This document shows, one piece after another, positions 1-31,596 of a stretch of 64,000 nucleotides of DNA (position 1 is its first letter; the number at the start of each line of letters is the position of its first letter). The notes below the pieces were generated by a model. It saw only the letters and a list, made by a program, of their open reading frames with translations. It was not told where the DNA came from and did not search any database. The DNA comes from an uncultured Gemmatimonadota bacterium (GTDB lineage Bacteria > Gemmatimonadota > Gemmatimonadetes > Palauibacterales > Palauibacteraceae). The DNA lies in assembly GCA_964465015.1 (NCBI GenBank), contig CAYXHP010000148.1, forward strand, positions 2,072 through 66,071, read 5' to 3'. The translations under genes and the position numbers were made by a program.

Positions 1-566
1 AGCGCGTCCTGGACGCCCTCCGAGGGCTCGACGGGGCGCGTGACATCCCGCTCCAGCGCCTCGCGAGGCACAGGGAAGCCCTCCCGGTGCAGGTGGGCCA
101 GGAAGGCGTCCCACAGCGTCGGGCCCGCCAGGCGGCGCTCCAGCCGCGCGCGGGCCTCGCTCCCTTCCGGATAGCGCTCCAGGATCAGGGGCCGCTTGAG
201 CCCGAGCGCGAACTCGAGCTCCCGGAACTGGAACGACTCCAGCCCGCTGGCCTGGTCCAGCCGGTCCCGGAAGGTGAGGAACTCGCGCGGGGTCATCGTC
301 TCCAGGATGTCGATCTGTCCCACCATGACCTTGAGGATGGTGAGGATCCGCTTCATGGCGTGGAGCGCCACGGGCAGGTCGTCGCGGTCCAGGATCGCCC
401 GCACGTAGTCCAGCTCGTGCAGCACCTCCTTGAACCACAGCTCGTACACCTGGTGGATGACGATGAACAACATCTCGTCGTGCTCCCCGGCCCGCAGGCG
501 CTGCAGCGAGAGGAGCTCGTCCAGGTGCAGGTAGTCGGCGTAGGTCAGGTAGCGTTCCGGCTCCAC
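1..566 (-). CDS. kynA: Tryptophan 2,3-dioxygenase, N-terminal part. The gene runs off the window start. GTG start at 566..564, 1 nt after the stop of the upstream gene.
   Basis: Reverse-strand translation gives VEPERYLTYADYLHLDELLSLQRLRAGEHDEMLFIVIHQVYELWFKEVLHEL...TMTPREFLTFRDRLDQASGLESFQFRELEFALGLK. This matches the conserved HDEMLFI.QHQ..ELW and TP.EF..FRD..SGFQS.QFR..E blocks of bacterial tryptophan 2,3-dioxygenase. The + strand ORFs here (87..740 and others) are low-complexity antisense frames. Confidence 0.85.
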   Translation of the reverse strand, partial: MEPERYLTYADYLHLDELLSLQRLRAGEHDEMLFIVIHQVYELWFKEVLHELDYVRAILDRDDLPVALHAMKRILTILKVMVGQIDILETMTPREFLTFRDRLDQASGLESFQFRELEFALGLKRPLILERYPEGSEARARLERRLAGPTLWDAFLAHLHREGFPVPREALERDVTRPVEPSEGVQDA

Positions 567-567
567 G

Positions 568-2847
568 TCAGTAGCCCCATTCGAAGCGAGGCGTGTAGTC
601 GTCCAGCGTCGAGTACGGCTTCGGCCACGGCAGGTCGTAGCCGAGCGCGTACGCGGCGTGGCGCGTCCAGTAAGGCTCCCACAGGTGGGCCCGGGCCAGG
701 CAGCACAGGTCCGCCCGGCCGGCGGCCAGGATCGTGTTGACGTCCATGTAGGAGGAGATGTTGCCCACCGCCATGGTGTGGATGCCGACCTCGTGCCGGA
801 TCCGGTCGGCGAAGGGCGTCTGGAACTGGCGCCCGTAGCGAGGCTTCTGCCATGGCACCGTCTGGCCGGCCGAGACGTCCACGATGTCGCCGCCCGCCTC
901 CGCGACCCGGCGTGCCACCTCCACCGCGTCGTCGGCGGTCATCCCCCCCGGGGCCCAGTCCACCGCGGAGATCCGGACCGAGATCGGCCGCTCCTCGGGC
1001 CACACCGCCCGCACGGCGCTCAGCACCTCGAGCGGGTAGCGCATCCGGTTCTCGAGCTCGCCCCCGTACTCGTCCTCGCGCTCGTTGGTGAGGGGGGAGA
1101 TGAAGCTGGCCAGGAGGTAGCCGTGCGCGAAGTGGATCTCTAGGAGGTCGAAGCCGGCCTCCACGGCCATCTCGGCCGCGCGGACGTACTCGCGCAGCAC
1201 CCGGTCCATGTCGGCTCGGTCCATGGGTCGGGGGACCGGATTCTCGGGCTTCCAGGGAAGGGGAGACGGGGCCAGCACCTCCCAGCCGTCCTCCTCCAGC
1301 GGCTCCACGTCCCCTTCCCAGGAGAGCTTCGTCGCGCCCTTGCGGCCCGCGTGCCCGAGCTGGAGGCCGATCCTGGCCGAGCTCCGGTCGTGCACGAAGT
1401 CGACGATCCGCTTCCACGCGGGAACGTGCTCGGGGAGGTACATGCCCGTGCACCCCGGCGAGATCCGTCCCTGGGCGCTGACGTTCGTCATCTCGCTCAT
1501 CACGAGGCCCGCGCCGCCCACCGCCCGGCTCCCCAGGTGCACCAGGTGCCAGTCGTCGGGTGTCCCGTCCACGGCCGAGTACTGGCACATGGCCGACACG
1601 ACCACGCGGTTCTCGAGCACGAGACCTCGAAGCCGGAACGGGGTGAACATCGGCGGGGGCGGCGGATCCGTCCGGATGGCGACGCCCGACTGCTCCGCGG
1701 CCCGGCCGGCGAACCAGCGGTCCACATCCGCGGTGAATGTCGGGTCGCGCATCCGCAGGTCCTCGTGCGTGATGCGGAGGCTCCGGGTGAGGAGCCCGAA
1801 AGCGAACTGGAGCGGCTCGTCGTCCATGTAGCGCTCGGTGCCCTCGAACCATTCCAGGCTGGCGCGGGCGGCGCGCTGCAGGCTCTCGACGTCGGGCCGC
1901 CGCGCCTCCTCGTAGGCCGGGAGCGCACGGCACGGCTGGTTCCCGTGCGCGGTCAGCGCATCCCGGAGCGCGATGGCATCGATCATGGCGATGCGCGTAC
2001 CCGAGCCCACCGAGAAGTGGGCGGTGTGCGCCGCGTCCCCGATGAGCACCGTGTTCCCGTGCCACCATCGACCGGTGCGCAGGGTCGGAAAGTGCCGCCA
2101 GATGGAGCGGTTCCGGATGAGCGGGTGCCCCTCGAGCTCCTCCTCGAACAGGTCGGCGCAGAAGGCGGCGGCCGCCTCTTCGTCGTCCTCCGGCAGGCCC
2201 GTGGCCGCCCACGTCTCATCGCGCGCCTCGACGATGAAGGTCGAGTGCGCCTTCCCGTCCCTGGTCGGCTCGTACTGGTAGGCGTGCACGCGCCACAGTC
2301 CGTGCCGGTCCTCGCGGAAGTAGAACGTGAAGGCCCGGAAGGGACGCGTCGTGCCGAGCCACACGAAGCGGTTGGGCCGGAGGTCGATGGTCGGCTGGTA
2401 ACGCTCCGGGTGGAGCCCGCGGACCGTGCTGTTCACCCCGTCGGCCGCCACGAGGAGGTCGGCCTCCTCCCACGGCGAGAGATCGGTGACGTCGACGCCG
2501 TGCCGGAGGTCCACGCCCAGCTCGCGAGCCCGGGCCGAGAGGATCTCGAGCAGGGTCGAGCGGGCGAGGCCCGAGAAGCCGTGTCCGGTGGAGCGCAGGC
2601 ACGCCCCCCGGTAGTGGATGTCGATGTCGTCCCAGTGGTGGAAGTGGCGGGTGATCTCCGCGTAGCTGGTCGGGTCGGCGGCGGCGATCTCCTCCAGCGT
2701 GGCATCCGAGAACACGACCCCGAAGCCGTAGGTGGCGCCGGGCGGGTTGCGCTCCAGCACCGTGACCTCGTGCGTCTCGTCCTGGAGCCGCATGAGGATG
2801 GAGAAGAAGAGCCCGGCGGGCCCGCCCCCGACGCAGACGATCCTCAC
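568..2847 (-). CDS. Bifunctional flavoprotein with an N-terminal FAD-dependent aromatic monooxygenase domain and a C-terminal Old Yellow Enzyme-type FMN reductase. Family of 2-aminobenzoyl-CoA monooxygenase/reductase and salicylyl-CoA 5-hydroxylase. GTG start at 2847..2845.
   Basis: The N-terminal part reads [15 protein letters not shown] (GxGxxG Rossmann) ...[16 protein letters not shown]. The C-terminal part reads [13 protein letters not shown]...[32 protein letters not shown]...VRISAVDW, an OYE TIM-barrel. It is about 760 aa. The 1252-aa ORF on the track is this gene plus upstream out-of-frame junk. GTGA overlap with the upstream ACAD stop. Confidence 0.85.
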
Positions 2848-17588: not shown

Positions 17589-18491
17589 ATGTGCGATCGT
17601 CGTGGAGGACCGGAAGAGGGATCGTCGGCCTGGAGCCGGATCCGGGGGATCCGTGCCCGGGCGCCGCTGGCTCGCCTGGCCCCGGCGCTCATGTCCGCCG
17701 CGCTCCTTGCGCTGACGGTCCCGGGCCTCCGGGCCCAGGGCAGCCAGACCGCAGCCGACCAGGATTGGTGCCGGGAGGCCATGGGCGGCCACGACCAGGC
17801 GAGGCGCTACTGCGAGGTGCGCGACATGAGCTTCGCGGCGCCCTCGGGAGGCCTCGACGTCGACGCCCGGCCCAACGGTGCCATCGAGGTGCGGGCCGGA
17901 TCGGGTAGCCAGGTCCGGGTGCTGGCGCGCGTGATGACCCATGCCCGGTCCGCCGATGCGGCCCACGACCTGGCGAGTCGGGTCAGCGTGTCCACCGAGG
18001 ACGGCCGCGTGCGGGCCACGGGGCCCGACACGGACGGGGAGGGCGACACCTGGTGGTCGGTGAGCTTCCGGATCACGGCGCCCGCCTCGACCGACCTGTC
18101 GCTACGCGCCATGAACGGGGGCATCACGGCGCACGGGATGACAGGCCGTACGCGCTTCCACACGCTGAACGGCGGCGTGCATCTGGAGGATATGGCCGGC
18201 GACGTGAGCGGCTCCACCACGAACGGGGGCCTGCACGTCGTCCTGTCGGGGAAGCGCTGGGCGGGGCAGGGGCTCGATGCCCAGACCACCAACGGCGGGA
18301 TCGATCTCACCATCCCCGACGGCTACGCCGCGCACCTGGTGACCTCGACGGTGAACGGCGGACTGAACGTGGACTTCCCGATCACCGTACAGGGCCGGAT
18401 CGGCCGCGAGCTCTCCACGGACCTGGGAGGCGGTGGCCCCACGATCCGCGTGGTGACGACCAACGGAGGCGTGGACCTCCACCGCCGCTAG
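17589..18491 (+). CDS. Second DUF4097-like secreted protein, a paralogous architecture. Alternative start at 17691.
   Basis: Signal peptide ALLALTVPGLRAQG. Repeats NGGITAHG / NGGVHLED / NGGLHVVL / NGGIDLTI / NGGLNVDF / NGGVDLH. Confidence 0.65.
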   Translation: MCDRRGGPEEGSSAWSRIRGIRARAPLARLAPALMSAALLALTVPGLRAQGSQTAADQDWCREAMGGHDQARRYCEVRDMSFAAPSGGLDVDARPNGAIEVRAGSGSQVRVLARVMTHARSADAAHDLASRVSVSTEDGRVRATGPDTDGEGDTWWSVSFRITAPASTDLSLRAMNGGITAHGMTGRTRFHTLNGGVHLEDMAGDVSGSTTNGGLHVVLSGKRWAGQGLDAQTTNGGIDLTIPDGYAAHLVTSTVNGGLNVDFPITVQGRIGRELSTDLGGGGPTIRVVTTNGGVDLHRR

Positions 18492-18643
18492 CCCGCAGCG
18501 GGGGGGAGCCCCGCCGCCCACCGTCCCTCGGTGGGGCCGGCGGAGCTCCCGTCGTCCGACCCGCTTCTCCTCCCGTTCGTCCCGCCCCGCCGGCCGCCCG
18601 ACGCGACGTTGCAACCTACCCCGCCCGGCTCGCGTCCAAGGGG

Positions 18644-21454
18644 ATGAACGGACGCCACGCCACCCGACCCGAGGCCGCGGAGCCCGCCATGGACCAGAGC
18701 CTCGACCGCGGTCGCCGAGCGGCCCTCGCGCTCGCGTTGGTGACCGGCGCGGGGCTGGCCTCTCCCGGGACGGGTCTCCTGGCACAGGCGGCGGGCGATG
18801 GCGCGCACGCGGCCTCCGCCGGCTCCTCTTCGCACATGGCCGAGCGGCCGCGGGTGCGAGCGGTCCGCCTCCGCACCCCGATCCAGCTGGACGGCCGGCT
18901 GGACGAAGCGGTGTGGCGAACGGCGCCGGCGGCCGCCGGGTTCCGTCAGACGGAGCCCGACCCCGGGAGCCCCGCCACCGAGCGCACCGAGGTCCGGTTC
19001 GCCTATGACGGACGGGCGCTCTACATCGGGGCGCGCATGTACGATTCGCTCGGCGCGGCCGGGGTGCGGACGCGGCTGGTCCGACGGGACGCGGACGCCG
19101 AGAGCGACGAGCTCTCCATCATCTTCGACACTTTCCATGACCACCTGGGGCGGACGGAGTTCGACGTGAACCCGTCCGACGTGCGCGGAGACGCCATCGG
19201 GCTGGGAGGAAGCAACCCGGACGCCTCCTGGGACCCGGTGTGGAAGGCGGCCACCGCCATCGATTCCCTGGGCTGGACGGCTGAGCTCCGGATTCCGTTT
19301 TCCCAGCTCCAGTTCCCGCCCGACTCCGTGGAGACCTGGGGCCTCCAGATCCTGCGCAGCATGAGCCGGGTGCAGGAGCGAGCGGAATGGGCCTACTGGC
19401 CGGTCGACCAGGTGGGAGGGCCCTCCCGCTTCGGGCACCTCTCAGACCTGCGGCCGCCCCGGACCCGCCGGGTCCTGGAAGCTATGCCCTACGCCGTCGT
19501 CAGCTCGGCCAACCAGCCCATCGACGCGGCCGACCCGCTGGCCCGGGCGCACGCCATGACGTACCGGGTCGGGGGCGACCTGGACTACCAGCTCGGCTCC
19601 AGCCTATCGCTCTCGGCCACCTTCAACCCCGACTTCGGGCAGGTGGAGGTGGACCCGGCGGTGGTGAACCTGAGCGCGTTCGAGACCTTCTATCCGGAGA
19701 AGCGTCCCTTCTTCGTCGAGGGCTCCGACCTGTTCAGCTTCGGCGGCTTCAACTGCTACTTCTGCAGCAACGTCTCCAGCCTGGACCTGTTCCACTCGCG
19801 CCGGATCGGTCGCAGCCCGCAGGGGGCTTCGCTGGCGACGGACGCGGGGGCCTACGCCTCTGTGCCGGACAATACGTCGATCCTGGGAGCGGTGAAGCTG
19901 ACGGGACGGCAGGCGGGGGGACTGTCGGTCGGCGTGCTGGATGCGGTCACGGCCCGGGAGCGGGCCACGGTCGTCTCGGACGGCGGTCGCCGGTTCCAGC
20001 AGACGGTCGAGCCGGCCACCAACTACTTCGTGGGCCGGGCCAAGCACGACTTCGACGACGGGAACCTGGTCGTGGGCGGGATCTTCACCTCCGTGCTGCG
20101 CGGCACCACCGACCCGGGGCTCGAGGAGCTGCTGCCACGCCACGCCGAGACGGCCGGGCTGGACGGCCAGGCCTGGTGGGGAGGGAAGACGTACCGGCTC
20201 CGGGCCCAGGTGGCGGCCAGCGGCGTGTGGGGGGACAGCGCCGCCATCCGGCGCGAGCAGGAGTCGAGCGCCCGGTATTTCCAGAGGCCGGACCGGCACC
20301 GCGGCGGGAACGGGCTGTTCTCGGACGCGTTCGACCCGGCCGCGACCTCGCTGCGCGGGTGGGCGGGACACGTGCGGGTGGCCAAGGAGTCGGGAAGCTG
20401 GCTGTGGGAGGCCGCGCTCAACGTGAGGAGCCCGGGCTTCGAGTCCAACGACCTCGGCTTCCTCACGCAGGCGGACTACTGGTGGATGAACGCCAACCTG
20501 TTCCGCCAGTTCACGCGGCCGACATCGTGGTACCGATCCCTCCGGCTCATCGCCGGCGGGCAACAGCAGATCGACTTCGACGGCGACCTGACCTATCGGG
20601 ACGTGCACGCCTACGCCGGGATCACCCTCCCGAACTACTGGGGCCTCAGCGCGTTCGTGATCCGCGGCACCTCGGCGCTCGATCCGACGATCACCCGTGG
20701 CGGCCCGGTGGTCCGGATCCCCGGCTTCACCTACTACAGCTTCGATCTCTCCACGGACTCGAGAAGGGCTCTGGTCGCGGAACTGTCGACCAACGTGACG
20801 GACCGGGACGTCGCCCCGACCGCCTATCGCGCCTCGCTCTCGCTCCGCTTCAAACCGGTCTCCAACCTCTCCCTCTCGGCCGGTCCGGCCTACCAGCGCG
20901 GGACTTCCGACCACCAGTACGTGACCGCCGTCGAGGATCCCACCGCGACCTCCTTCTACGGAGAGCGCTACGTGTTCGCCGACCTCCGGCAGAGTCAGAT
21001 CTCGATGGAGACGCGGGCCAGCGTGACCTTCACGCCCGACCTGTCGCTGGAGGTCTACCTGCAGCCGCTGGTCTCCAGCAACCGGTTCTCGGCTTTCAAG
21101 GAGTTCGCCGTACCCCGGAAGGGACGGACGCTGGTGTACGGCCGCGACGTGGGGACCGTCTCGGTAGCCGGCGCCGGCAGCGCCCGCGAGTACACGGTCG
21201 ATCCCGACGGCGCCGGCCCGGCCGCCCCCTTCTCGTTCGCCGACCCGAACTTCACCTTCCACTCCCTTCGCGCAAACGCGGTGCTGCGGTGGCAGTTCCG
21301 GCCCGGCTCCACGCTCTTCCTGGTCTGGACCCAGGACCGGAGCGGCGAGGTCCCGACCGGGAGCCTGGCGCTCGGACGCGACGTGGGGAGGATCTTCGAC
21401 CGCCCCCCCGCGGACACGTTCCTCGCCAAGGTCAGCTGGTGGACGACCTTCTGA
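18644..21454 (+). CDS. Large DUF5916-family outer-membrane protein with a carbohydrate-binding-like N-terminal domain
   Basis: Tat/Sec-like leader DRGRRAALALALVTGAGLASPG. It is ~936 aa and ends ...FLAKVSWWTTF, a C-terminal aromatic typical of OM beta-barrels. The track ORF 18053..21454 includes upstream junk. Confidence 0.7.
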   Translation: MNGRHATRPEAAEPAMDQSLDRGRRAALALALVTGAGLASPGTGLLAQAAGDGAHAASAGSSSHMAERPRVRAVRLRTPIQLDGRLDEAVWRTAPAAAGFRQTEPDPGSPATERTEVRFAYDGRALYIGARMYDSLGAAGVRTRLVRRDADAESDELSIIFDTFHDHLGRTEFDVNPSDVRGDAIGLGGSNPDASWDPVWKAATAIDSLGWTAELRIPFSQLQFPPDSVETWGLQILRSMSRVQERAEWAYWPVDQVGGPSRFGHLSDLRPPRTRRVLEAMPYAVVSSANQPIDAADPLARAHAMTYRVGGDLDYQLGSSLSLSATFNPDFGQVEVDPAVVNLSAFETFYPEKRPFFVEGSDLFSFGGFNCYFCSNVSSLDLFHSRRIGRSPQGASLATDAGAYASVPDNTSILGAVKLTGRQAGGLSVGVLDAVTARERATVVSDGGRRFQQTVEPATNYFVGRAKHDFDDGNLVVGGIFTSVLRGTTDPGLEELLPRHAETAGLDGQAWWGGKTYRLRAQVAASGVWGDSAAIRREQESSARYFQRPDRHRGGNGLFSDAFDPAATSLRGWAGHVRVAKESGSWLWEAALNVRSPGFESNDLGFLTQADYWWMNANLFRQFTRPTSWYRSLRLIAGGQQQIDFDGDLTYRDVHAYAGITLPNYWGLSAFVIRGTSALDPTITRGGPVVRIPGFTYYSFDLSTDSRRALVAELSTNVTDRDVAPTAYRASLSLRFKPVSNLSLSAGPAYQRGTSDHQYVTAVEDPTATSFYGERYVFADLRQSQISMETRASVTFTPDLSLEVYLQPLVSSNRFSAFKEFAVPRKGRTLVYGRDVGTVSVAGAGSAREYTVDPDGAGPAAPFSFADPNFTFHSLRANAVLRWQFRPGSTLFLVWTQDRSGEVPTGSLALGRDVGRIFDRPPADTFLAKVSWWTTF

Positions 21455-22173: not shown

Positions 22174-22454
22174 TCGGGGCGGCCTAGGGAGGCCCGCCTT
22201 GCGGTGAGGCGGATCCACCGGAGCAGCCGGCGGATCGCCGGGCGGCCCGGGCCCCGGGGACGCGGTCCGGCGATCGAGGTCCGTCTTCGCGAGGCGTCGG
22301 TTCCGTGACGCAGCCCGTCCCCGTAGGCCGCCGGCGGGGCCGGCCCGCGAGGGGCTGGCGGCGGGAGGGCGACGACGAGTATCGTCGGGTGTCGCCGGCC
22401 CGGCCCGCCGAGCGGGCCCGGAGCCGTCCCGGAGCATCCGATCGGAAGGCGCCG

Positions 22455-23609
22455 ATGTTCGCGGGTTCTCGAGGGCCGAGTCCTCCCTCCGGCAGGTCGC
22501 CCGACCGCACCGAAGACTCCCGACGACCCCTGGGCTGGATCCTGCTGGTCGTGGCCGGCGCCACCGCGCTCGGCCTCGTCGCGACCGTCCAGGCCTACTT
22601 CGGCATGCCGTCCTCGGAGCCGATGTCGTTCTGGGAGATGACCAAGTACTGGCTCCCGGACTACTACCTTTGGGCCGCGCTCGCGCCACTCATCCTGTGG
22701 CTGGGCCGCCGCTTCCCGATCGAGCGTCGGGGCTGGGCGCGGCACCTGGCGCTCCACGTGGCCGCCGCCACCGTGCTCCTGCAGGTCGAACTGCTGGTAT
22801 CCTGCGCCGTGATCTCGGTCATCGCCTCGATCCCGGAGCGCTACGACGGCTTCTGGGACTACTACCGCACGGTGGCCCGCGGCTACTTCCTGTGGGGGCT
22901 GATCATCTACCTGCTCATCCTGGCGGCGGGCCAGGCGTACCAGAACGCGCGCCGCCTGCGAGCCCAGGAGGTCGAGGCCGCCGACCTGAGAGGGCGCGTG
23001 GTCGAGGCGCAGCTTCGCGCCCTGAAGATGCAGCTCCACCCGCATTTCCTGTTCAACACCCTCAACTCGATCGGGGCCCTGGTCCGCACCGGTGAGCGGG
23101 AGCGGGCCCTCGGGATGCTGGCCGGACTGGGCGACCTCCTCCGCTACTCGCTCGAGAACGAGGAGCGCCAGGAGGTGCCCCTGCAGGAGGAGATCGAGTT
23201 CCTACGCCGCTATCTCGAGGTCGAGCAGATGCGTTTCTCGGACCGTCTCCAGGTCGAGTTCCGGGTCGAGGAGGAGGCGCTGCTGGCCTCCGTGCCGAAC
23301 ATGATCCTCCAGCCCCTGGTCGAGAACGCGATCCGTCACGGGGTCAGTCCCCACGGCGGCCAGCGCCGGGTGCGGGTGGGGGCCAGCCGCCGGGACGGGC
23401 AGCTGCAGCTGGAGGTCCAGGACGACGGACCGCAGCCCCCGCCGGGCTGGCGTCCGGACGAGAGCTCGGGTGTCGGCCTCCGGAACGTGCGCGAGCGGCT
23501 GGCCCGAATGTACGGCTCCTCCGGCGAGCTGCGCGTGAGACCGGGTTCCACGGCCGGCGTGGTCTCGACGGTCGAGCTTCCGTGGAAGCGCTGGAAGGAG
23601 GCTCCATGA
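22455..23609 (+). CDS. LytS/YehU-type sensor histidine kinase (5TM N-terminal domain plus His_kinase)
   Basis: Multiple TM helices, then LHPHFLFNTLNSIGALV (H-box of the LytS family) and GVGLRNVRERL. Confidence 0.8.
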   Translation: MFAGSRGPSPPSGRSPDRTEDSRRPLGWILLVVAGATALGLVATVQAYFGMPSSEPMSFWEMTKYWLPDYYLWAALAPLILWLGRRFPIERRGWARHLALHVAAATVLLQVELLVSCAVISVIASIPERYDGFWDYYRTVARGYFLWGLIIYLLILAAGQAYQNARRLRAQEVEAADLRGRVVEAQLRALKMQLHPHFLFNTLNSIGALVRTGERERALGMLAGLGDLLRYSLENEERQEVPLQEEIEFLRRYLEVEQMRFSDRLQVEFRVEEEALLASVPNMILQPLVENAIRHGVSPHGGQRRVRVGASRRDGQLQLEVQDDGPQPPPGWRPDESSGVGLRNVRERLARMYGSSGELRVRPGSTAGVVSTVELPWKRWKEAP

Positions 23610-24438: not shown

Positions 24439-25470
24439 CTAGGCGGCCGTCCGCTCCCGATCCGGCCGGGTGGACGCGCGCCTCCGACGCGGCTCCGGGC
24501 TCGAGCGCTGCGTGCGGCCGAGACGGGCCAGGCCCCTCAGCCCCACCACTCCGGTGGCCAGTCCGAGCACCGGCGGCACCTGCACGGCCTGAAGCACGAG
24601 GCCCGCGAGCACGGCCGAGGACGGATCCACCCCGAACGGTGCCAACCCCGCCACGAGCGATACCTGGAAGATCCCCACGTTGGCCGGAGTGAGTCGTAGA
24701 GCGCCTCCCAGGTTGGCGGCCAGCAGCGCGACCAGGGCCGCGTCGGGACCCGATGCGACGTGGGTGGCGGAGAGCACCAGCCAGTAGGTGCCCCACTGGG
24801 CGGCCCAGTTGACCAGCGCCAGCACGACGGCCTCGGCGAACGGTCGCCGTCCCACGATCCGGACTCCGTCCACCATCGCCTCGGGCACGTGCCGCCGCAG
24901 CCGCTCGGCCACCTTCGGTCGTCGCAGCACCAGGACCAGGAGCGCGCCGGTCGCCACGACCGCGACCCCGGCCAGGCCGGCCCGTTCCGGCAGGGAGGGC
25001 AAGGGGAGGAAGAGCGAGGCGCACGCCACCACGATCCCGAGCGCGACCAGCTCGGACAGCCGCACCGTGGCGACCGAGATCGCCGTGAGGCCCACCGGCA
25101 GTCCCTCGCGCGCCAGCGCCTGCACGCGGGCCGCCTCGCCGACGAGGGAGACGGAGACGTCGGACACCGCCGATCCCAGGAGGTTGGCGCGCTGCACCGG
25201 GAGCCAGCGCGCCCCGGTGGACGGGCGCAGCAGGCGCTGCCAGGCCCAGCCTTTGGCCACCAGTGACAGCAGGTTGACGACCAGCGCCGCGACCAGGAGC
25301 CGAGGATCGGTGGCCATCAGGGCCGCACCGGCCTCGCCCCAGGGGAAGTGGAGGGCCACCCGAACCGCGAGCGCGCCGAGCCCGGCCAGGAGCAGGACGC
25401 GAAGGGCACGCCGCCACCCGCGGCGGACCGTTCCATCCCCGGAGTCCGGGGGCGCGCCTCGGCGGCTCAC
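24439..25470 (-). CDS. Integral membrane protein of the lysylphosphatidylglycerol-synthase TM-region / flippase-like family (UPF0104)
   Basis: About 8 predicted TM helices. GTG start overlapping the stop of the upstream deacetylase. Confidence 0.6.
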   Translation of the reverse strand: MSRRGAPPDSGDGTVRRGWRRALRVLLLAGLGALAVRVALHFPWGEAGAALMATDPRLLVAALVVNLLSLVAKGWAWQRLLRPSTGARWLPVQRANLLGSAVSDVSVSLVGEAARVQALAREGLPVGLTAISVATVRLSELVALGIVVACASLFLPLPSLPERAGLAGVAVVATGALLVLVLRRPKVAERLRRHVPEAMVDGVRIVGRRPFAEAVVLALVNWAAQWGTYWLVLSATHVASGPDAALVALLAANLGGALRLTPANVGIFQVSLVAGLAPFGVDPSSAVLAGLVLQAVQVPPVLGLATGVVGLRGLARLGRTQRSSPEPRRRRASTRPDRERTAA

Positions 25471-26169
25471 CGCAGCAGCTCGGCGAGGGGATGGACGGCG
25501 TAGCCCGCTGCGGACAGGTCGGCCAGGATTCCCGGGAGCGCCTCGGCCGTCTGGGTCCGATCGCCGTCCGGGTCGTATCCGTCGCCGTCATGGAGGAGCA
25601 GGATCGTCCCGGGCTTCACGCGGCGCCGCACCCGGCGCCGAATCTCCTCGGCCCCGGGCCGATCCGTGTCCCACACCCCCACGCTCCACCCCACCAGGGG
25701 ACAACCCAGTCCGCGCAGCGTCCGATCCACGAAGGGGTTCCGGTGTCCGTGGGGCGCCCTGAACGCCACCGGCGCGACGCCCGCGGCGTCCTCGACGGCC
25801 CGGTGTCCCGACTCGATCTCCTCCCGGACGGCAGCTGGTCCCATGAGGGTGAGCTTGCGGTGCGAGAAGGTGTGGCTCCCGACCAGGTGGCCGCCCGCGG
25901 CCACCTCCCTCGCCAGGTCCGGGAAGGCCTGGGCGTGCCGTCCGACCAGGAAGAAGGCGGCCGGGGCACCAGCCGCCGCCAGCGCGTCCAGGACGGCGGG
26001 AGTGGTGGCGCGGTTCGGGCCATCGTCGAAGGTGAGGTAGACCCGCCGTCCGTCCGCGGGGCCCCGTCCGAGGACGGGCCCGAACAGTCGGGCGTTGGGG
26101 AGGAGCGCGCCCGCCGCCAGGCTCCCCGCGCCCGCCAGGCCGACCGCGCCGGCCACGAGGCCGATCATG
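25467..26169 (-). CDS. Polysaccharide deacetylase (NodB homology / CE4)
   Basis: ATG at 26169 (MIGLVAGAV...). VYLTFDDGPN...FFLVGRH...GHLVGSHTFSHRKL...RAPHGHRNP...LLHDG. ATGA overlap with the GT4 stop. Confidence 0.8.
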
Positions 26170-27280
26170 CCAGCACCCGACGGTAGATGCCGAGTACCCG
26201 GGCCGCGACGTCGGGCCAGGCGAACTCGCAGGCATGGTCCAGCGCCCGCGAGCGCATCCGCGCCCGGCGATGCGCGTCGCCCAACAGGTCGAGGATGGCC
26301 TCGGCCCAGGCGCCCGGATCGGCCGGCTCCAGGAGGTGGCCGGCCCCCGAGCCGCCGAGGACGAACCGGTGTCCGGCCAGGTCCGAGGCCACCACCGGGG
26401 CTCCGCAGGCCATCGCCTCGAGCAGCGTGATGCCGAAGGAGGCGCGCCGGGTGGGGGCCAGGTAGAGATCGCACGTGCCGTAGTATTCCGGCCTCTCCTC
26501 GTACACCAGCCCCACGAACCGGACGCCGTCGGCCAGCGGGGCCGCCTGCCGCTCGTAGTGGGCCCGGAGCGGTCCGTCTCCGACCACGGTCAGCGTGGCG
26601 CCCGGATAGGCTTCGATGACGGCCGGCATCGCCGTCAGCAGCGTCTCGAGGCCGTTGCGCGGGTCGAGTCGTCCCAGGAAGAGGAGACGCGGCGGATCCC
26701 CGGGGCCGAGCGGACCCGGATGGCGGCCGTTGGGATGGAAATACCCGACGTCGACGCCGTTCGGCACCACGTCGAACTCGGCCGCGAAGTAGCGCGACAG
26801 CGCCTCGACCACCGTCGGGCTCACCGCGATGCGCGCCGCCATGCTCGCCAACCGGCGCTGGAGCGGCGCCTGGAACACGCGGTAGCCCACCGAGCGCGGA
26901 AACCAGGAGTGGAAGGTGCTGACCACGGGGAGCCCCAGGTCGTCGGCGGCCGTCTGGCCCACGAGCCCGAGCGTCGGGGCCAGCGGGCCGTGCAGGTGGA
27001 CCAGGTCGATGGCCTCTTCCCGGAACAGGCGCCGGAGCCCGGCCCGGAGGCGCCAGCCGATGGCCACCCGGGCGAAGGCTCCGTTGCTGAACACCACCTG
27101 GCTCCGGCCCACGCGGCGGACGCCGGTCTCGTCCGGGTCCTGGCCGGTCATGCGGGCGGTGACGATGAGGGCTTCGTGGCCCAGTCGACCGAGCTCGCGC
27201 TGTAGCGCCTGCACGTGCTCGGTGACCCCCCCGAGGTGGGGATGGTAGTATTCGGTGACCAGCGCGACGCGCATGCGTGT
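26165..27280 (-). CDS. GT4-family glycosyltransferase (PimA/MshA-like, retaining). Alternative start at 27292.
   Basis: MRVALVTEYYHPHLGGVTEHV...LLFLGRLDPRNGLETLL...LEAMACGAPVVASDLAGH. Confidence 0.8.
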   Translation of the reverse strand, partial: TRMRVALVTEYYHPHLGGVTEHVQALQRELGRLGHEALIVTARMTGQDPDETGVRRVGRSQVVFSNGAFARVAIGWRLRAGLRRLFREEAIDLVHLHGPLAPTLGLVGQTAADDLGLPVVSTFHSWFPRSVGYRVFQAPLQRRLASMAARIAVSPTVVEALSRYFAAEFDVVPNGVDVGYFHPNGRHPGPLGPGDPPRLLFLGRLDPRNGLETLLTAMPAVIEAYPGATLTVVGDGPLRAHYERQAAPLADGVRFVGLVYEERPEYYGTCDLYLAPTRRASFGITLLEAMACGAPVVASDLAGHRFVLGGSGAGHLLEPADPGAWAEAILDLLGDAHRRARMRSRALDHACEFAWPDVAARVLGIYRRVLA

Positions 27281-27548
27281 CCCCATCTCGCGGACCGCCG
27301 GGGCGGGCATCGCCCTGCGCGAGACGGGATCTCCGGCCCGCGCACTCCACGGCGTCCGGGCCGCGGCAGCGACGATTACAGTTGTAGACGGTACTCGTTT
27401 ACCCGTGCGCGAGCGCGAGTTCCATGTCGGGTTCGGGCCCGAGGGCGTGGGCGGACGGCGCCGGGCGGGTCGTCCCCTTACCTTCCACGTTCGGGCGCCC
27501 TCTGACGCGGGGTGATTCGCCGACGCACGAGCCGGACGGGAGGGCGAC

Positions 27549-30074
27549 ATGACGGGGCGATCGGGGAGCGAGGAAGGCCGCCCTGGCTTGCGCTCCCTCG
27601 CGAGCGCGGTGCGCGGCATCGTGGTCCTGGCGGCCGTCGTCCTGGCGACGGGGCCGGTCGTGGCGCAGGGGACCGGGACCCCGGGAGCGGGGGTCCCCGA
27701 CTGGCGCGTCAACCAGGCCTTCCAGCGCTCGCACGATTTCGACCTCCTGCACCAGGACATCGCCCTTCGGTCGTTCGACTGGGATTCCACCTCCCTGGCC
27801 GGCCGCGTGGAGACGACCCTGCGCGCCCTGCGACCCGGTTTCGACTCGGTCGTGCTCGATGCTGGATCGGGCCTGCGGGTGAAGAGGGTGTGGACGCCGG
27901 ACGGCGACTCGCTGCGCTGGACCCACACCGGTGACACGCTGGTCGTGTTCCCGTCCGAGCCGCTCGGCTTCGGGGACACGCTGCGGTTCCGGGTCGACTA
28001 CCGGGCCACGGTGCGGAGCGGACACGGGCTCACCTTCCTCGACAGCGCCGCCGACCATCCGCGTCAGATCTGGAGCCAGGGGGAATCCCACAACAACCAC
28101 CTGTGGTTCCCGACGTACGACTTCCCCGACGACAAGATGACGTGGACGCTCGCTGCCACCGTCCCGGACGGGTTCACGGCGGTTTCGAACGGCCGCGAGC
28201 TGGGGGATCGCGACGAGGGCGATGGAACGCACACGGTGACCTGGAGCGAGCCGCATCCCGCGTCCACCTACCTCGTGTCGCTGGTGGTCTCGCGGCTCGT
28301 TCGACTGCGGGACGACTGGAGGGGGACGCCGGTCGACTACTACGTGTACGCGTCCGACACGACGGCGGGTCGCCGGCTGTTCCGCGTCACGCCCGACATG
28401 ATCGAGGCGTACTCGCGGCTCACCGGAATCCCGTACCCGTGGTCCAAGTACGCACAGATCACGGTGGCCGACTTCTTCGGGGGCATGGAGAACGTCACGG
28501 CCACGACCCTGGTGGACTGGCTCCCGGACGAGCGCGCCTACCGCGACGACCCCTGGTACCTCATCGACCTCATCCCGCACGAGCTCGCCCACATGTGGTT
28601 CGGCGACTACGTGACCACGGCGGACTGGGCCAATCTCTGGCTCAACGAGGGCTTCGCGGAGTTCATGCCGGGCCAGTACTGGGCGCGTGCGAGAGGGGAG
28701 GAGGCGGCGGAGACCTACTACCTGCACGAGTACGATGACTTCCTCCACGCGGACGCGCAGCGGCGCGTCCCGCTCGCCGCCCCCAGCTCCAACGTGATCT
28801 ACCCCAAGGGCGCCCTCGTCCTCCGCATGCTCGAGAAGCTGCTGGGTCCCGATCGCTTCTGGGCCTCGATTCACCGGTACCTGGCTCGACACGCCTACGG
28901 GAACGCGACCACCGAGGACCTGCGGCGCGCGATCCTGGCGGCCACCGGCCAGAACCTGGACTGGTTCTTCGACCAGTGGATCTACTCGGGCGGCTATCCC
29001 GAGCTCGCCGTCCGCGCGCACTGGGACTCCGCCGGCCGAAGCCTGGCGCTGGTGGTCCGGCAGCTGCAGGCCGACTCGGCCGATTCGACCCGGGCGCGGG
29101 TGACTCCGGCGGTCTTCCGGATGCCGGTCACGGTCCGGGTGTCCACCGCCGCCGGGCCCATCACCCGGCGTGTGGTCGTGGACCGGGCGGTGGACACGGT
29201 CCTCGTGCGACAGGTGATGGCCCGGCCGACGGCGGTCGTGTTCGACGACCGGGACGAGGTCGTGAAGCGTCTCGACTTCCCGCAGCCGACCTCGTGGCTG
29301 GCCACCGAGCTGGAGGGGAGCGGCGCGCTCTGGAACCGCCGGTGGGCGGCCGAGCGGCTCGGAGAGCGCACCGAGGACACGGCCGCGGCCTCGGCGCTGG
29401 CCACGACGCTCGCGGGGGGCGGACCGCCGGCCCTGCGGGCGGCGGCGGCCGGCGCGCTGTCGAGCTTTCCGGCCATCCGCGCGCTTCCCGCCCTCCGCGT
29501 GGCGCTGGGGGACAGCTCGGCCCGCGTCCGCACGGCCGCGGCCTCGGCACTCGCCGGCGTGGGCGGCACGGAGGCCGCCGGCCTGGCGCGGCACGCCTTC
29601 GAGACCGACTCGAGCTATCACGTGCGAGCGGCGGCGCTGGAGGCCTACGCCGCCATCGACTCCGCCGACTCCGTCGCCGTGCACCAGGCGCTGGGTCGGG
29701 GCCTCCACACGCCCTCGTATCGGGGCGCCATCGCCCAGGCGGCGATGATCGGCATCGTGGCCCGCAGGGACACGAGCTTCGTGAACGACCTGGAGGGGAT
29801 GCTCCCCCGGGACGAGCTGGCGGCGCAGGCGCTCGGGGCCCTGGGGGCGCGCGGGGACCGCCGGGCGCTCGGCGTGCTGGCCGTGCACCTCGAGGATCCC
29901 GACCGCGGCGTTCGGCGCGCCGTCCTGAGGGCGTTCGGCACCATCGTCCCGCCGGCTGCCGCCGTGGCGGCGCTGGAGTCGGTCCGGAACGGTCTCACCG
30001 ACCCGGACGTGGAGCGCGCGGTCGACGAGCTGGTCCGGCGGCTGCGAGCCCGGGGGGGGGACGCCGGTGGGTGA
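27549..30074 (+). CDS. M1-family zinc aminopeptidase (aminopeptidase N-like), secreted, with C-terminal HEAT-like repeats
   Basis: Signal peptide. GAMEN-like motif FFGGMEN. HELAHMWFGDYVT...WLNEGFAEF (HExxH..E). The C-terminal ~250 aa is Ala-rich and repeat-like. Confidence 0.85.
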   Translation: MTGRSGSEEGRPGLRSLASAVRGIVVLAAVVLATGPVVAQGTGTPGAGVPDWRVNQAFQRSHDFDLLHQDIALRSFDWDSTSLAGRVETTLRALRPGFDSVVLDAGSGLRVKRVWTPDGDSLRWTHTGDTLVVFPSEPLGFGDTLRFRVDYRATVRSGHGLTFLDSAADHPRQIWSQGESHNNHLWFPTYDFPDDKMTWTLAATVPDGFTAVSNGRELGDRDEGDGTHTVTWSEPHPASTYLVSLVVSRLVRLRDDWRGTPVDYYVYASDTTAGRRLFRVTPDMIEAYSRLTGIPYPWSKYAQITVADFFGGMENVTATTLVDWLPDERAYRDDPWYLIDLIPHELAHMWFGDYVTTADWANLWLNEGFAEFMPGQYWARARGEEAAETYYLHEYDDFLHADAQRRVPLAAPSSNVIYPKGALVLRMLEKLLGPDRFWASIHRYLARHAYGNATTEDLRRAILAATGQNLDWFFDQWIYSGGYPELAVRAHWDSAGRSLALVVRQLQADSADSTRARVTPAVFRMPVTVRVSTAAGPITRRVVVDRAVDTVLVRQVMARPTAVVFDDRDEVVKRLDFPQPTSWLATELEGSGALWNRRWAAERLGERTEDTAAASALATTLAGGGPPALRAAAAGALSSFPAIRALPALRVALGDSSARVRTAAASALAGVGGTEAAGLARHAFETDSSYHVRAAALEAYAAIDSADSVAVHQALGRGLHTPSYRGAIAQAAMIGIVARRDTSFVNDLEGMLPRDELAAQALGALGARGDRRALGVLAVHLEDPDRGVRRAVLRAFGTIVPPAAAVAALESVRNGLTDPDVERAVDELVRRLRARGGDAGG

Positions 30075-31596
30075 GCGGCCGATGCGGACCCGGGACGAAC
30101 GGAGGTGTGCTGGCAACCCGCGGCGGGCGGACCGCCGGACCGCCGGGTCCGCGGCGGCACATCCGGGGATCCATCGGCGGGCGGCGGTGCCGCCGTCCTT
30201 CGCCGGGGCGTCGGCGATCGCGACGCTGGTGATCCCGGCGGTGGCGCTCGCCACGGGCTGCGCGGGCGGAACGCCGCCGGGCGCCAGGCTGGACGTACCC
30301 CCAGGGACGCGGCCGACCCTGTCGGTCGGCGCGGTCAGCGGGGCCGGCTACCACAACGAGACGTCCGTGGCCATCGACCCGGTCCGGCACGGCGGCGTCA
30401 TCGCTTCGTGGCAGATCCCGGCCACCGTCGCCCGCTCCTCCGACGGGGGCGCGACGTGGAAGAGCGTGGCGTTGCCGGGCACCGACCGCTGGGAGCTGGC
30501 CGGAGACCCGGCCGTGACCTACGGCCCGGACGGGACGGCGTACGCGCTGTTCATCGCGTTCGATCGCCCGGACGACTACCGCTTCCTGGGGCGCGCCGCG
30601 CACCGGAACGGGATCTTCGTGAGTCGCTCCCCGGACGGCGGCCACGAGTGGAGCGATCCGGCCGCGGTGGTGGAGCATTCCGAGGAGCCCGGGATCCCGT
30701 TCGAGGACAAGCCGATGATGGCCGTGGACCGGTTCGGGGACTCGCCGTGGCACGGCCACCTGTACGTGGCGTGGACCCAGTTCCGGAAGGCGGCGTCGGG
30801 CATCCGCTTCGCCCGATCCACCGACGGCGGGAGCACCTTCAGTCGGCCGATCGAGATCAGCGACCGCGCCGGTTCGCCGCAGGACACGCTGGGCGCCGAC
30901 GAGGGGACCGACCTCGCCGTCGGGCCGGGCGGCACCGTGTACGTGGTGTGGAGCGATTCGACCGGACTCCTCCTCGACCGGTCGCACGACGGTGGCCGGA
31001 CCTTCGGGACCGACGTCCACATCCGCCGCACCGGTCCCATCGTGTTCGGCGTGCCCGGCGTGGCGCGCGCCAACGGCTACCCGTCCCTGGGGCTCGATCC
31101 CCGTACCGGCCGCCTGTACGTGACCTGGGTGGACCGCAGCGCCGGGGAGGCGGATGTCTACCTGGTGACTTCGTCCGACCGCGGATACAGCTGGTCCGAG
31201 CCGATCCGGGTGAGCGGAGACCCGGTCGGCTCGGGCATCGACCACTTCTTCGCGTGGACGGCGGTGGATCCGGTCACCGGCCTGGTCGCGACCGGCTACT
31301 ACCGGAGCGGGCCCGGCGGCGGGCGCTCCCCGAGGCTGCGGTACATGCTGGCCTGGTCCGGCGACGGCGGCCGGACTTTCACCCGGGCGCCCTGGGGCGC
31401 CACCGAGTTCCGACCCGGCGGGCAGTTCCTGGGAGATTACACCGGCGTGGACGCGAGTTCGGGCGTCGTCTACGGGGCCTGGACCGAGGTGCCGGGCCCG
31501 CACGGGGCCGCCCCGGCGGACACGGCCGCGGGCGGCGTGCGCGGCGGGATGCACCGGACCCTCGTGGTGGTCGGCAAGGCGAGCTTCGGCGGCTAG
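30067..31596 (+). CDS. BNR/Asp-box repeat (sialidase-like) lipoprotein. The likely true start is GTG 30187, which gives the leader PPSFAGASAIATLVIPAVALATGC.
   Basis: Six Asp-box motifs: SSDGGATW, SPDGGHEW, STDGGSTF, SHDGGRTF, SSDRGYSW and SGDGGRTF. Lipobox LATGC. Confidence 0.75.
   Translation: MGERPMRTRDERRCAGNPRRADRRTAGSAAAHPGIHRRAAVPPSFAGASAIATLVIPAVALATGCAGGTPPGARLDVPPGTRPTLSVGAVSGAGYHNETSVAIDPVRHGGVIASWQIPATVARSSDGGATWKSVALPGTDRWELAGDPAVTYGPDGTAYALFIAFDRPDDYRFLGRAAHRNGIFVSRSPDGGHEWSDPAAVVEHSEEPGIPFEDKPMMAVDRFGDSPWHGHLYVAWTQFRKAASGIRFARSTDGGSTFSRPIEISDRAGSPQDTLGADEGTDLAVGPGGTVYVVWSDSTGLLLDRSHDGGRTFGTDVHIRRTGPIVFGVPGVARANGYPSLGLDPRTGRLYVTWVDRSAGEADVYLVTSSDRGYSWSEPIRVSGDPVGSGIDHFFAWTAVDPVTGLVATGYYRSGPGGGRSPRLRYMLAWSGDGGRTFTRAPWGATEFRPGGQFLGDYTGVDASSGVVYGAWTEVPGPHGAAPADTAAGGVRGGMHRTLVVVGKASFGG

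Follow-up and report, generated by a model that had tools for sequence, protein, structure and literature searches.

Introduction

Operons that encode a glycosyltransferase, a deacetylase, and an MprF/UPF0104 flippase-like protein (S-D-F operons) represent a type of pathway that has been shown experimentally twice before, as HexSDF (PMC10128005) and GpgSDF (PMC12713373). In Pseudomonas aeruginosa, gpgSDF (PA14_56030–56050) encodes a GT4 enzyme, a COG3233 deacetylase, and a UPF0104 protein, and N-acetylglucosaminyl-phosphatidylglycerol (GlcNAc-PG) is converted to glucosaminyl-phosphatidylglycerol (GlcN-PG); the operon was sufficient in Escherichia coli for formation of GlcNAc-PG and then GlcN-PG (PMC12713373). 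In Clostridioides difficile, hexSDF encodes a glycosyltransferase similar to monogalactosyldiacylglycerol (MGDG) synthase, the CE4 enzyme HexD, and the MprF-like protein HexF. The product is an aminohexosyl-hexosyl-diradylglycerol, which is needed for daptomycin and bacitracin resistance, and the N-acetyl form accumulates in a hexD mutant (PMC10128005). In this study, 64,000 nucleotides of DNA from an uncultured Gemmatimonadota bacterium (contig CAYXHP010000148.1, positions 2,072 to 66,071; the whole stretch is called the window below) were analyzed. The window has 72% GC and contains the S-D-F gene order as one operon. Gemmatimonadota is an abundant, poorly cultured soil phylum. The best explanation given by sequence analysis is a self-contained S-D-F operon for a cationic or zwitterionic aminoglycolipid. 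Its GT4 lineage is distinct from the Gpg and Hex synthases and is uncharacterized.

Organization of the Operon

Gene coordinates were obtained from a plot of GC content at third codon positions (GC3 frame plot) combined with open reading frame (ORF) and start-codon analysis. The operon consists of the following genes, in order of transcription:

26165..27274, minus strand: GT4 glycosyltransferase (S), 369 aa, first gene; GT-B fold, retaining type; identified by Pfam, NCBIfam, PDB profile, and AlphaFold 2 (AF2)/Foldseek.
25467..26168, minus strand: CE4/NodB-type de-N-acetylase (D), 233 aa, second gene; identified by Pfam, NCBIfam, PDB, motifs, and topology.
24439..25470, minus strand: UPF0104/LPG_synthase_TM polytopic membrane protein (F), 343 aa, third gene; identified by Pfam, AF2, and MprF fold matches.

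A preliminary description of this DNA had reported three minus-strand genes of these families, coupled by ATGA/GTGA overlaps within 24439–27280. ORF, junction, and Pfam analysis bore out the genes and their coupling; the 5′ end of the given extent was about 6 nt off and lies at 27274. At the GT4/CE4 junction (GCATGA), the TGA of the GT4 gene is overlapped by 4 nt by the ATG of the CE4 gene. At the junction of CE4 with the gene of the transmembrane (TM) protein (CGGTGA), the TGA of CE4 is overlapped by 4 nt by a GTG start. The GT4 ATG at 27274 agrees with the family N-terminus MR[IV]ALVTEYY, which reads MRVALVTEYY in the window. The public NCBI call for this GT4 (P0001) is 381 aa long and begins at an upstream ATG at 27310, 36 nt before the family-supported start. 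Database entries of three TM-protein homologues (P0143, P0172, and P0176) have long out-of-frame N-terminal extensions. Start miscalls for the S-D-F operon appear to be common in high-GC metagenome-assembled genomes (MAGs).

Family, Fold, and Active Site of the Glycosyltransferase

The GT4 protein matched PF13439 (Glyco_transf_4, 1.8e-26), PF00534 (Glycos_transf_1, 8e-31), and PF13692 (7e-35), and it has the two Rossmann-like domains of the CAZy GT4/GT-B type. The AF2 model had a predicted local distance difference test (pLDDT) score of 92 and more than 400 PDB GT-B matches at E ≤ 0.001. The Foldseek match of rank 1 was PimA (2GEJ), with a TM-score of 0.82 and 30% identity. When a profile of 26 orthologues was compared with the PDB, PimA was matched with 232 bits (E 7e-68; residues 1–366 versus 5–367), and the next match reached at most 118 bits. 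The window GT4 is a full-length homologue of PimA in sequence and in fold. All NCBIfam matches were below threshold: MshA with 87 bits (cutoff 462), GpgS with 85.7 bits (cutoff 480), and BshA with 71 bits (cutoff 274). The enzyme had been described as PimA/MshA/PIG-A-like; its kinship with PimA was upheld, but it is far nearer to PimA than to MshA or PIG-A and is without the mannose-binding Glu and the beta-phosphate-binding Lys of PimA.

The GT4 signature set His/Lys/Glu...Glu (EX7E) corresponds to H118, K202, E274, and E282 of PimA (PMC4506291; also PMC9883506, PMC9202250). The UDP-GlcNAc users MshA and WbnH also have the signature residues (PMC4506291). E274 of PimA, which binds mannose, is absolutely critical (PMC9202250), and K202 contacts the beta-phosphate (PMC9883506). 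In the window GT4, H122 and E286 match the signature, whereas N207 replaces K202 (PRNG versus PRKG) and A278 replaces E274 (RASFG versus GESFG), and the full set is not present.

GT4 relatives were obtained by a search of 1.84 billion cluster representatives, and 119 full-length sequences were tabulated. The residues at the K202 and E274 positions covaried: Lys with Glu in 80 sequences; Asn with a residue other than Glu in 33 (N-type); Asn with Glu in none; and Lys with Ala in one. At the E274 position, the N-type sequences had Ala (22), Gly (3), Ser (3), Val (2), or Pro, His, or a gap (one each). In a neighbor-joining tree, the 33 N-type GT4s were separated from the K/E clade of 80 sequences that includes PimA, and the window GT4, without Glu274 and Lys202, fell outside the K/E clade. 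In sequence terms, the window GT4 clade is a sister clade to mycobacterial PimA. Arg occupies the PimA K256 position (R261 in the window) in 28/33 N-type sequences, and Leu is found there in 56/80 K/E-type sequences. The replacement of K202 and E274 in all clade members is consistent with an altered donor. The guanine contact D253 of PimA was considered as an indicator of nucleotide specificity and rejected as uninformative, since this position is variable even inside the K/E clade.

The rest of the active site is strongly conserved. G15–G16, H122, R202, D204, R206, and E286 are near-invariant, and about 70 columns are invariant among 26 orthologues. The PimA residues critical for phosphatidylinositol (PI) binding or catalysis, namely Y9, N63, R68, H118, R196, E199, and R201 (PMC9202250), are all kept in the clade. 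An Arg-rich helix (R75, R77, R81, R82, and R85; residues 75–85) lies at the position of the PimA membrane-binding helix. The enzyme probably still works at the membrane, with a phospholipid-like head group as acceptor and a putatively remodeled donor-sugar/leaving-group site. The retention of R68, N63, and Y9 of PimA suggests that the acceptor may have a phosphodiester-linked polyol head group.

Motifs and Topology of the Deacetylase

The deacetylase matched Polysacc_deac_1 (PF01522, 8e-31); the best NCBIfam model was NodB with 146 bits, and solved CE4 enzymes in the PDB were matched with up to 110 bits. The CE4 motifs MT1 (TFDD), MT2 (H[ST]xxH), MT3 (RxPxG), and MT5 (LxH) are present in the window as TFDDG(46), HTFSH(99), RAPHG(137), and LLLHD(190), and they were found in 75/75 full-length orthologues. 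The position of MT4 (DxxDW) has diverged, with WDTDR in the window versus DPDDW in the best PDB match.

The protein starts with a hydrophobic anchor helix (residues 1–23), with practically nothing before it. On average, the orthologues had 0.05 K/R residues ahead of the helix and 3.25 in the stretch leading from it to the catalytic domain; this asymmetry was observed in 74/76. In some relatives, CE4 and UPF0104 are fused in a single protein, in which a K/R-rich N-terminus is followed by two TM helices, the CE4 domain, and the UPF0104 domain. The N-tail of the window UPF0104 protein is also K/R-rich. Based on the positive-inside rule, this charge distribution and the fusion architecture place the CE4 catalytic domain, by prediction, in the cytoplasm in both the anchored and the fused architectures, so that deacetylation would probably occur before flipping. 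NodB and ArnD are CE4 enzymes of the cytoplasmic face, with which the predicted side agrees. The order of transfer, de-N-acetylation, and translocation suggested in the preliminary description fits the predicted cytoplasmic side of the CE4 domain.

The UPF0104 Protein

The third protein matched LPG_synthase_TM (formerly UPF0104; PF03706, 1.2e-33). The AF2 model had a pLDDT of 87, and all six PDB fold matches at E ≤ 0.001 were MprF (TMq 0.54–0.60, probability 1.0), with the fold of the MprF N-terminal domain. A sequence-profile search of the family against the PDB gave spurious histone matches only. From its modeled fold, the UPF0104 protein is predicted to be the translocase of the module.

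Conservation of the Operon and Displacement of the Deacetylase

The nearest homologues of the window proteins are in Gemmatimonadales and Gemmatimonadota MAGs. GTDB was scanned with one genome per species, and at least 452 genomes contained both GT4 motifs. Of these, the 80 best matches (52–77% identity), almost all of them from Gemmatimonadota MAGs, were examined. CE4 was located directly downstream of GT4 on the same strand in 75/77 evaluable loci, and the full GT4-CE4-UPF0104 triad was present in 66/72. A start codon at the −4 overlap was found at 55/77 GT-CE junctions and 52/71 CE-TM junctions, figures that are somewhat favorable as the start nearest to the stop was chosen. In L002/L019 (OY970192.1, a 5.4 Mb Gemmatimonadales chromosome), an M16 peptidase follows GT4-CE4 in the place of UPF0104.

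More distant relatives were obtained by a metagenome scan with 27 diverse N-type seeds, which gave 80 loci; with two earlier contigs, this made 82 GT4s with 33–59% identity to the window. All 82 were of the RN/A(S)...E type. Gene order was counted where the sequence extended 2 kb or more downstream (45 loci): GT-CE4-TM in 33; GT with a CE4-UPF0104 fusion in two; GT-TM in six; GT-CE4 in two; and GT alone in two, where the partner gene was close by on the other strand. With the fusions included, the triad was intact in 35/45 loci. Conservation across relatives, which the preliminary description had named as its own test, was thus found in both scans and down to a GT4 identity of 33%.

The CE4-UPF0104 fusions were encoded by single ORFs in two loci from different metagenome samples (L097, 6999–8861; L159, 6168–8861), and the same fusion was seen on two truncated contigs (L119 and L158). 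Four other apparent long CE4+TM fusions (P0170, P0143, P0176, and P0172) were rejected as truncations or out-of-frame N-terminal extensions according to their sequences. In two of the GT-TM loci (L087 and L167), a YdjC-family deacetylase follows the TM gene; the YdjC protein of the CE4-less loci matches chitin disaccharide deacetylase and HpnK models. The occupation of the slot by two unrelated deacetylase folds, together with the fusion, is strong comparative evidence that the GT product has an N-acetyl group and that the three proteins probably share one pathway. The earlier proposal of N-acetylhexosamine (HexNAc) transfer followed by deacetylation thereby gained support from a non-orthologous displacement in the CE4 slot of two distant lineages.

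K/E-type GT4s were used as controls. In this small and thin sample of two metagenome contigs and a Tsukamurella operon, no deacetylase or flippase partner was found; the Tsukamurella operon is composed of phosphatidylinositol-phosphate (PIP) synthase, phosphatidylinositol mannoside (PIM) acyltransferase, and pimA. A Pfam census of the neighbors of the N-type genes (one ORF on each side, ≤1.5 kb, about 120 loci, 25 commonest families) showed no recurrent extra partners. The other genes of the window (M1 peptidase, BNR protein, DUF5916/CBM9 protein, molybdopterin oxidoreductase, and MacB-type pump) are unrelated. Therefore, the three genes behave as an autonomous module.

The CE4-less loci L087, L088, L094, L154, and L167 collectively contain the GT4-UPF0104 pair with YdjC, Wzi-like, MMPL, PAP2, and SurA-like proteins. 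The MMPL transporter is HpnN/BstA-like and has a sterol-sensing domain. These variants may be an inner-to-outer-membrane lipid export cluster, and the Wzi-like and HpnN/BstA-like MMPL neighbors suggest onward lipid export to the outer membrane in CE4-less lineages.

Proposed Function and Alternative Explanations

Synthesis and translocation of a hexosamine (HexN)-modified membrane lipid is considered the probable function of the module. In the proposed mechanism, the peripheral-membrane GT4 would transfer an N-acetylhexosamine to a phospholipid head-group hydroxyl at the cytoplasmic face. The donor would most likely be N-acetylglucosamine (GlcNAc) from UDP-GlcNAc, and the best acceptor candidates would be phosphatidylglycerol (PG) or PI. 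The membrane-anchored CE4 would then remove the acetyl group in the cytoplasm to give the HexN-lipid, and the MprF-flippase-like UPF0104 protein would move the product to the periplasmic leaflet, lowering the net negative surface charge. The sole basis for the HexNAc donor is the deacetylase partner.

The acceptor was considered from the lipids of the phylum and from genes neighboring the module. Cultured Gemmatimonadota have PG as a major lipid and a major unidentified aminolipid (PMC7844134, PMC11651109), which is weak evidence for an aminolipid product. For an inositol lipid there are circumstantial hints from two loci. In L136, a truncated CDP-alcohol phosphatidyltransferase (3–650, minus strand), the only such neighbor in 1.7 Mb of loci, is divergent from a GT4-CE4-TM triad; it scored 125 bits with archaetidylinositol-phosphate synthase, 99 with PIP synthase, and 31 with PgsA. 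In L087, the only match of the PAP2 protein was phosphoinositol-dihydroceramide (IPC) synthase, at a weak 53 bits. A literature search on PI synthesis in Gemmatimonadota found nothing. A hopanoid acceptor, by analogy with HpnI/K/L, was rejected: the YdjC, UPF0104, and HpnN-like MMPL proteins of the CE4-less relatives were far below the Hpn cutoffs. A survey of hopanoid producers does not mention Gemmatimonadota.

Several points weigh against synthesis and translocation of a HexN-lipid. Two catalytic-signature residues of GT4 are missing, and its activity or mechanism may be atypical. Its nearest solved and characterized homologue, PimA, is a GDP-mannose enzyme and not a HexNAc transferase, and the GpgS equivalog model for GlcNAc-PG synthase (NF053787) was matched over the full length at a score far under its cutoff. 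To our knowledge, the N-type clade has no biochemically characterized member. The flippase gene was not adjacent in 6/72 GTDB loci, and no recognized deacetylase was nearby in 4/45 metagenome loci. The aminolipid seen by thin-layer chromatography of isolates could equally be ornithine lipid. In the described systems, too, the flippase activity of GpgF and HexF awaits proof (PMC12713373, PMC10128005), and HexD was first proposed to act extracellularly (PMC10128005).

The same logic of transfer, deacylation, and flipping would hold for a carrier route similar to Arn/NaxD/Lgm, in which a HexNAc-polyprenyl phosphate is deacylated by CE4, flipped, and used by a periplasmic GT-C enzyme to modify lipid A, lipopolysaccharide, or another envelope polymer. 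CE4 has a precedent in Arn (PMC12690121), the host is diderm, and DedA/VTT or PAP2 neighbors occur in a few relatives. This route is nevertheless unlikely: the glycosyltransferase is a PimA-like retaining GT4 that keeps phospholipid head-group residues and not an ArnC/DPM1-like GT2; the flippase-like protein folds like the phospholipid flippase MprF and not like the small multidrug resistance (SMR) proteins of the ArnE/F type; and the Pfam census of neighbors, with one ORF per side within 1.5 kb and its 25 commonest families, contained no ArnT-like GT-C. It is less likely still that GT4 has no classical transferase activity and serves as a scaffold that binds lipids or nucleotides, or does something else, with CE4 and the flippase using a substrate made elsewhere. 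The invariable absence of the K202 and E274 equivalents from the clade, whose roles are known (PMC9202250, PMC9883506), would agree with this, but the other active-site residues are near-invariant, with the many invariant columns given above; the clade Arg by the nucleotide site (R261) could offset the lost Lys; and the joint change of Lys and Glu looks like coordinated remodeling, not decay.

The close relationship to PimA, its best solved homologue over the full length, and the JGI name "phosphatidylinositol alpha-mannosyltransferase" raise the question whether the enzyme is a genuine PimA, producing phosphatidylinositol mannoside with GDP-mannose as donor, and CE4 and the TM protein are functionally unrelated neighbors. 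This is very unlikely, as other residues stand in place of the mannose-binding Glu and the beta-phosphate Lys and the N-type is apart from the K/E clade. The PIP-synthase/PIM-acyltransferase/pimA operon was not found in the window or in the neighbor census and was never seen around a window-type GT4, and the start/stop overlaps and CE4-TM fusions argue for a single pathway. Slightly less probable again is an exopolysaccharide pathway of the poly-N-acetylglucosamine or chitin-oligomer type, in which a HexNAc oligomer or primer would be partially deacetylated by CE4 and exported with the aid of the TM protein. Poly- and oligosaccharides are the classical substrates of CE4 enzymes, NodB is the top NCBIfam model, and Wzi-like neighbors occur in CE4-less relatives. 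However, genes for a processive GT2 synthase, Wzx/Wzy, an ABC exporter, or OPX/PCP were lacking next to the module, both in the window and in the neighbor census, the glycosyltransferase is non-processive and PimA-like interfacial, and the predicted location of the CE4 domain is cytoplasmic; the deacetylated polysaccharide primer offered as an alternative in the preliminary description found no support. A soluble low-molecular-weight GlcN conjugate, comparable to mycothiol (MshA/MshB) or bacillithiol (BshA/BshB), is the least likely product. The order of glycosyltransferase and deacetylase is the same, and there is a weak NCBIfam likeness to MshA and BshA, but both scores are far under the cutoffs, a Cys ligase is not present, the deacetylase is membrane-anchored and sometimes fused to a polytopic membrane protein, and the obligate partner has a lipid-flippase fold.

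Within the preferred explanation of a HexN-modified membrane lipid, a more specific version is that the module corresponds, in bacteria, to the opening steps of glycosylphosphatidylinositol (GPI) anchor synthesis, in which GlcNAc would be transferred to PI or another inositol phospholipid, deacetylated to GlcN-PI, and flipped. The PimA-derived GT4 would have exchanged its contacts to mannose and to the leaving group (K to N, E to A, and a new Arg). This proposal is speculative and, at present, unlikely. If it is true, a widespread and undescribed GlcN-inositol lipid would exist in Gemmatimonadota and other diderm phyla, and its synthase would belong to a class of retaining GT4 with an unusual mechanism that does not use the canonical Lys/Glu pair.

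Flanking Genes and Presumed Promoter

The features next to the operon are as follows:

22305..23609, plus strand: LytS-type sensor, PF06580 His_kinase and HATPase (Pfam).
23606 (probable ATG start)..24421, plus strand: Response_reg+LytTR regulator (Pfam).
27275..27548: intergenic region, presumed operon promoter; 274 bp, with the GT4 start on one side and the divergent M1-peptidase gene on the other.

A scan for promoters and terminators gave nothing usable; it showed no sigma-70-like site, a result that says nothing in this phylum. The kinase and regulator genes are coupled by ATGA, with the regulator ATG at 23606 over the kinase TGA at 23607–23609 and GGAGG upstream. The pair and the triad converge, their stop codons lying 17 bp apart, and therefore share no promoter region. 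The regulator and kinase adjoin the triad only in L004–L007 (GT4 identity ≥75%); no such pair was found beside the triad in the other 78 loci of the GTDB scan (L008–L085), and LytS-type pairs were not recurrent in the downstream-neighbor census of 113 loci. The position of the pair beside the module on the opposite strand had been noted before and is correct, but as a link it did not hold: an adjacency that is lineage-specific and convergent is not evidence of regulation.

The DUF5916/CBM9 protein (18053–21454) is upstream of the kinase and regulator and forms a block with them, which is kept only in L004–L007. On the other side, the M1 peptidase with HEAT repeats (27549–30074, plus strand) is followed by the BNR/sialidase-like repeat protein (30067–31596, plus strand) with an 8-nt overlap. 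In L004, a single called product of 881 aa has M1, HEAT, and faint BNR matches. In some genomes, a fusion or a frameshift may affect the M1 and BNR genes.

Comparison with Known Systems

If the proposed function is true, the module would be a third, phylogenetically very widespread version of the S-D-F route to cationic or zwitterionic membrane lipids and a candidate for the genes behind an aminoglycolipid in Gemmatimonadota, with a bearing on resistance to cationic antimicrobials. Characterization of the highly conserved GT4 clade without the Lys and the first Glu would test the need for these residues in retaining GT-B catalysis. The CE4-flippase fusions and the charge topology address the side of deacetylation, a question left by HexSDF and GpgSDF. 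Grounds for experiment are the breadth of the family, the coordinated loss of Lys and Glu, fusions that inform on topology, and a possible connection with inositol lipids.

PimA (GDP-Man:phosphatidylinositol alpha-mannosyltransferase; 2GEJ/4N9W) shares full-length homology, acceptor-side features, and membrane-binding features with the window GT4. The two differ in K202 to N and E274 to A across the window clade and in the Arg gained at the K256 position. The operon partners of PimA are PIP synthase and PIM acyltransferase, whereas those of the window GT4 are a deacetylase and a flippase-like protein.

In the Arn pathway, ArnC is followed by the CE4 deformylase ArnD, ArnE/F, and ArnT (PMC12690121). 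The likeness lies in transfer of a sugar to a membrane lipid, N-deacylation by a CE4-family enzyme on the cytoplasmic face, and flipping. The undecaprenyl phosphate carrier, the GT2, the SMR-type flippase, and the GT-C that acts on lipid A were not seen in the window module. In GPI (PIG-A/PIG-L) and mycothiol (MshA/MshB) synthesis, a GT4 transfers GlcNAc and de-N-acetylation follows; the GPI pathway has PI as acceptor, and flipping of the product follows. The PIG-L and MshB deacetylases have the LmbE fold, unlike the window enzyme, and the GT4s of these pathways keep the canonical Lys and Glu.

The window module was set apart from GpgSDF and HexSDF through the NCBIfam GpgS model and the domain descriptions in the papers. 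HexSDF is similar in its S-D-F order, CE4-family deacetylase, MprF-like protein, and adjacent two-component system. However, HexS is annotated as an enzyme of the MGDG-synthase type and has a glycolipid acceptor, while the window synthase is a PimA-like GT4, and HexRK demonstrably regulates hexSDF, whereas the window LytS/LytTR pair is convergent and adjoins the triad only in relatives at least 75% identical. GpgSDF is similar as a three-gene S-D-F operon whose synthase is a GT4 and whose flippase-like protein belongs to UPF0104/COG0392. Cytoplasmic deacetylation ahead of flipping has been proposed for it, as predicted for the window module, and its product lowers the anionic membrane charge, as proposed here. 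The window GT4 is not a GpgS equivalog and is much nearer to PimA, and GpgD is of the COG3233 type without TM helices, whereas the window deacetylase is an N-terminally anchored CE4/NodB enzyme. The window module combines a Gpg-type GT4 and UPF0104 with a Hex-type CE4 and is not an orthologue of either system.

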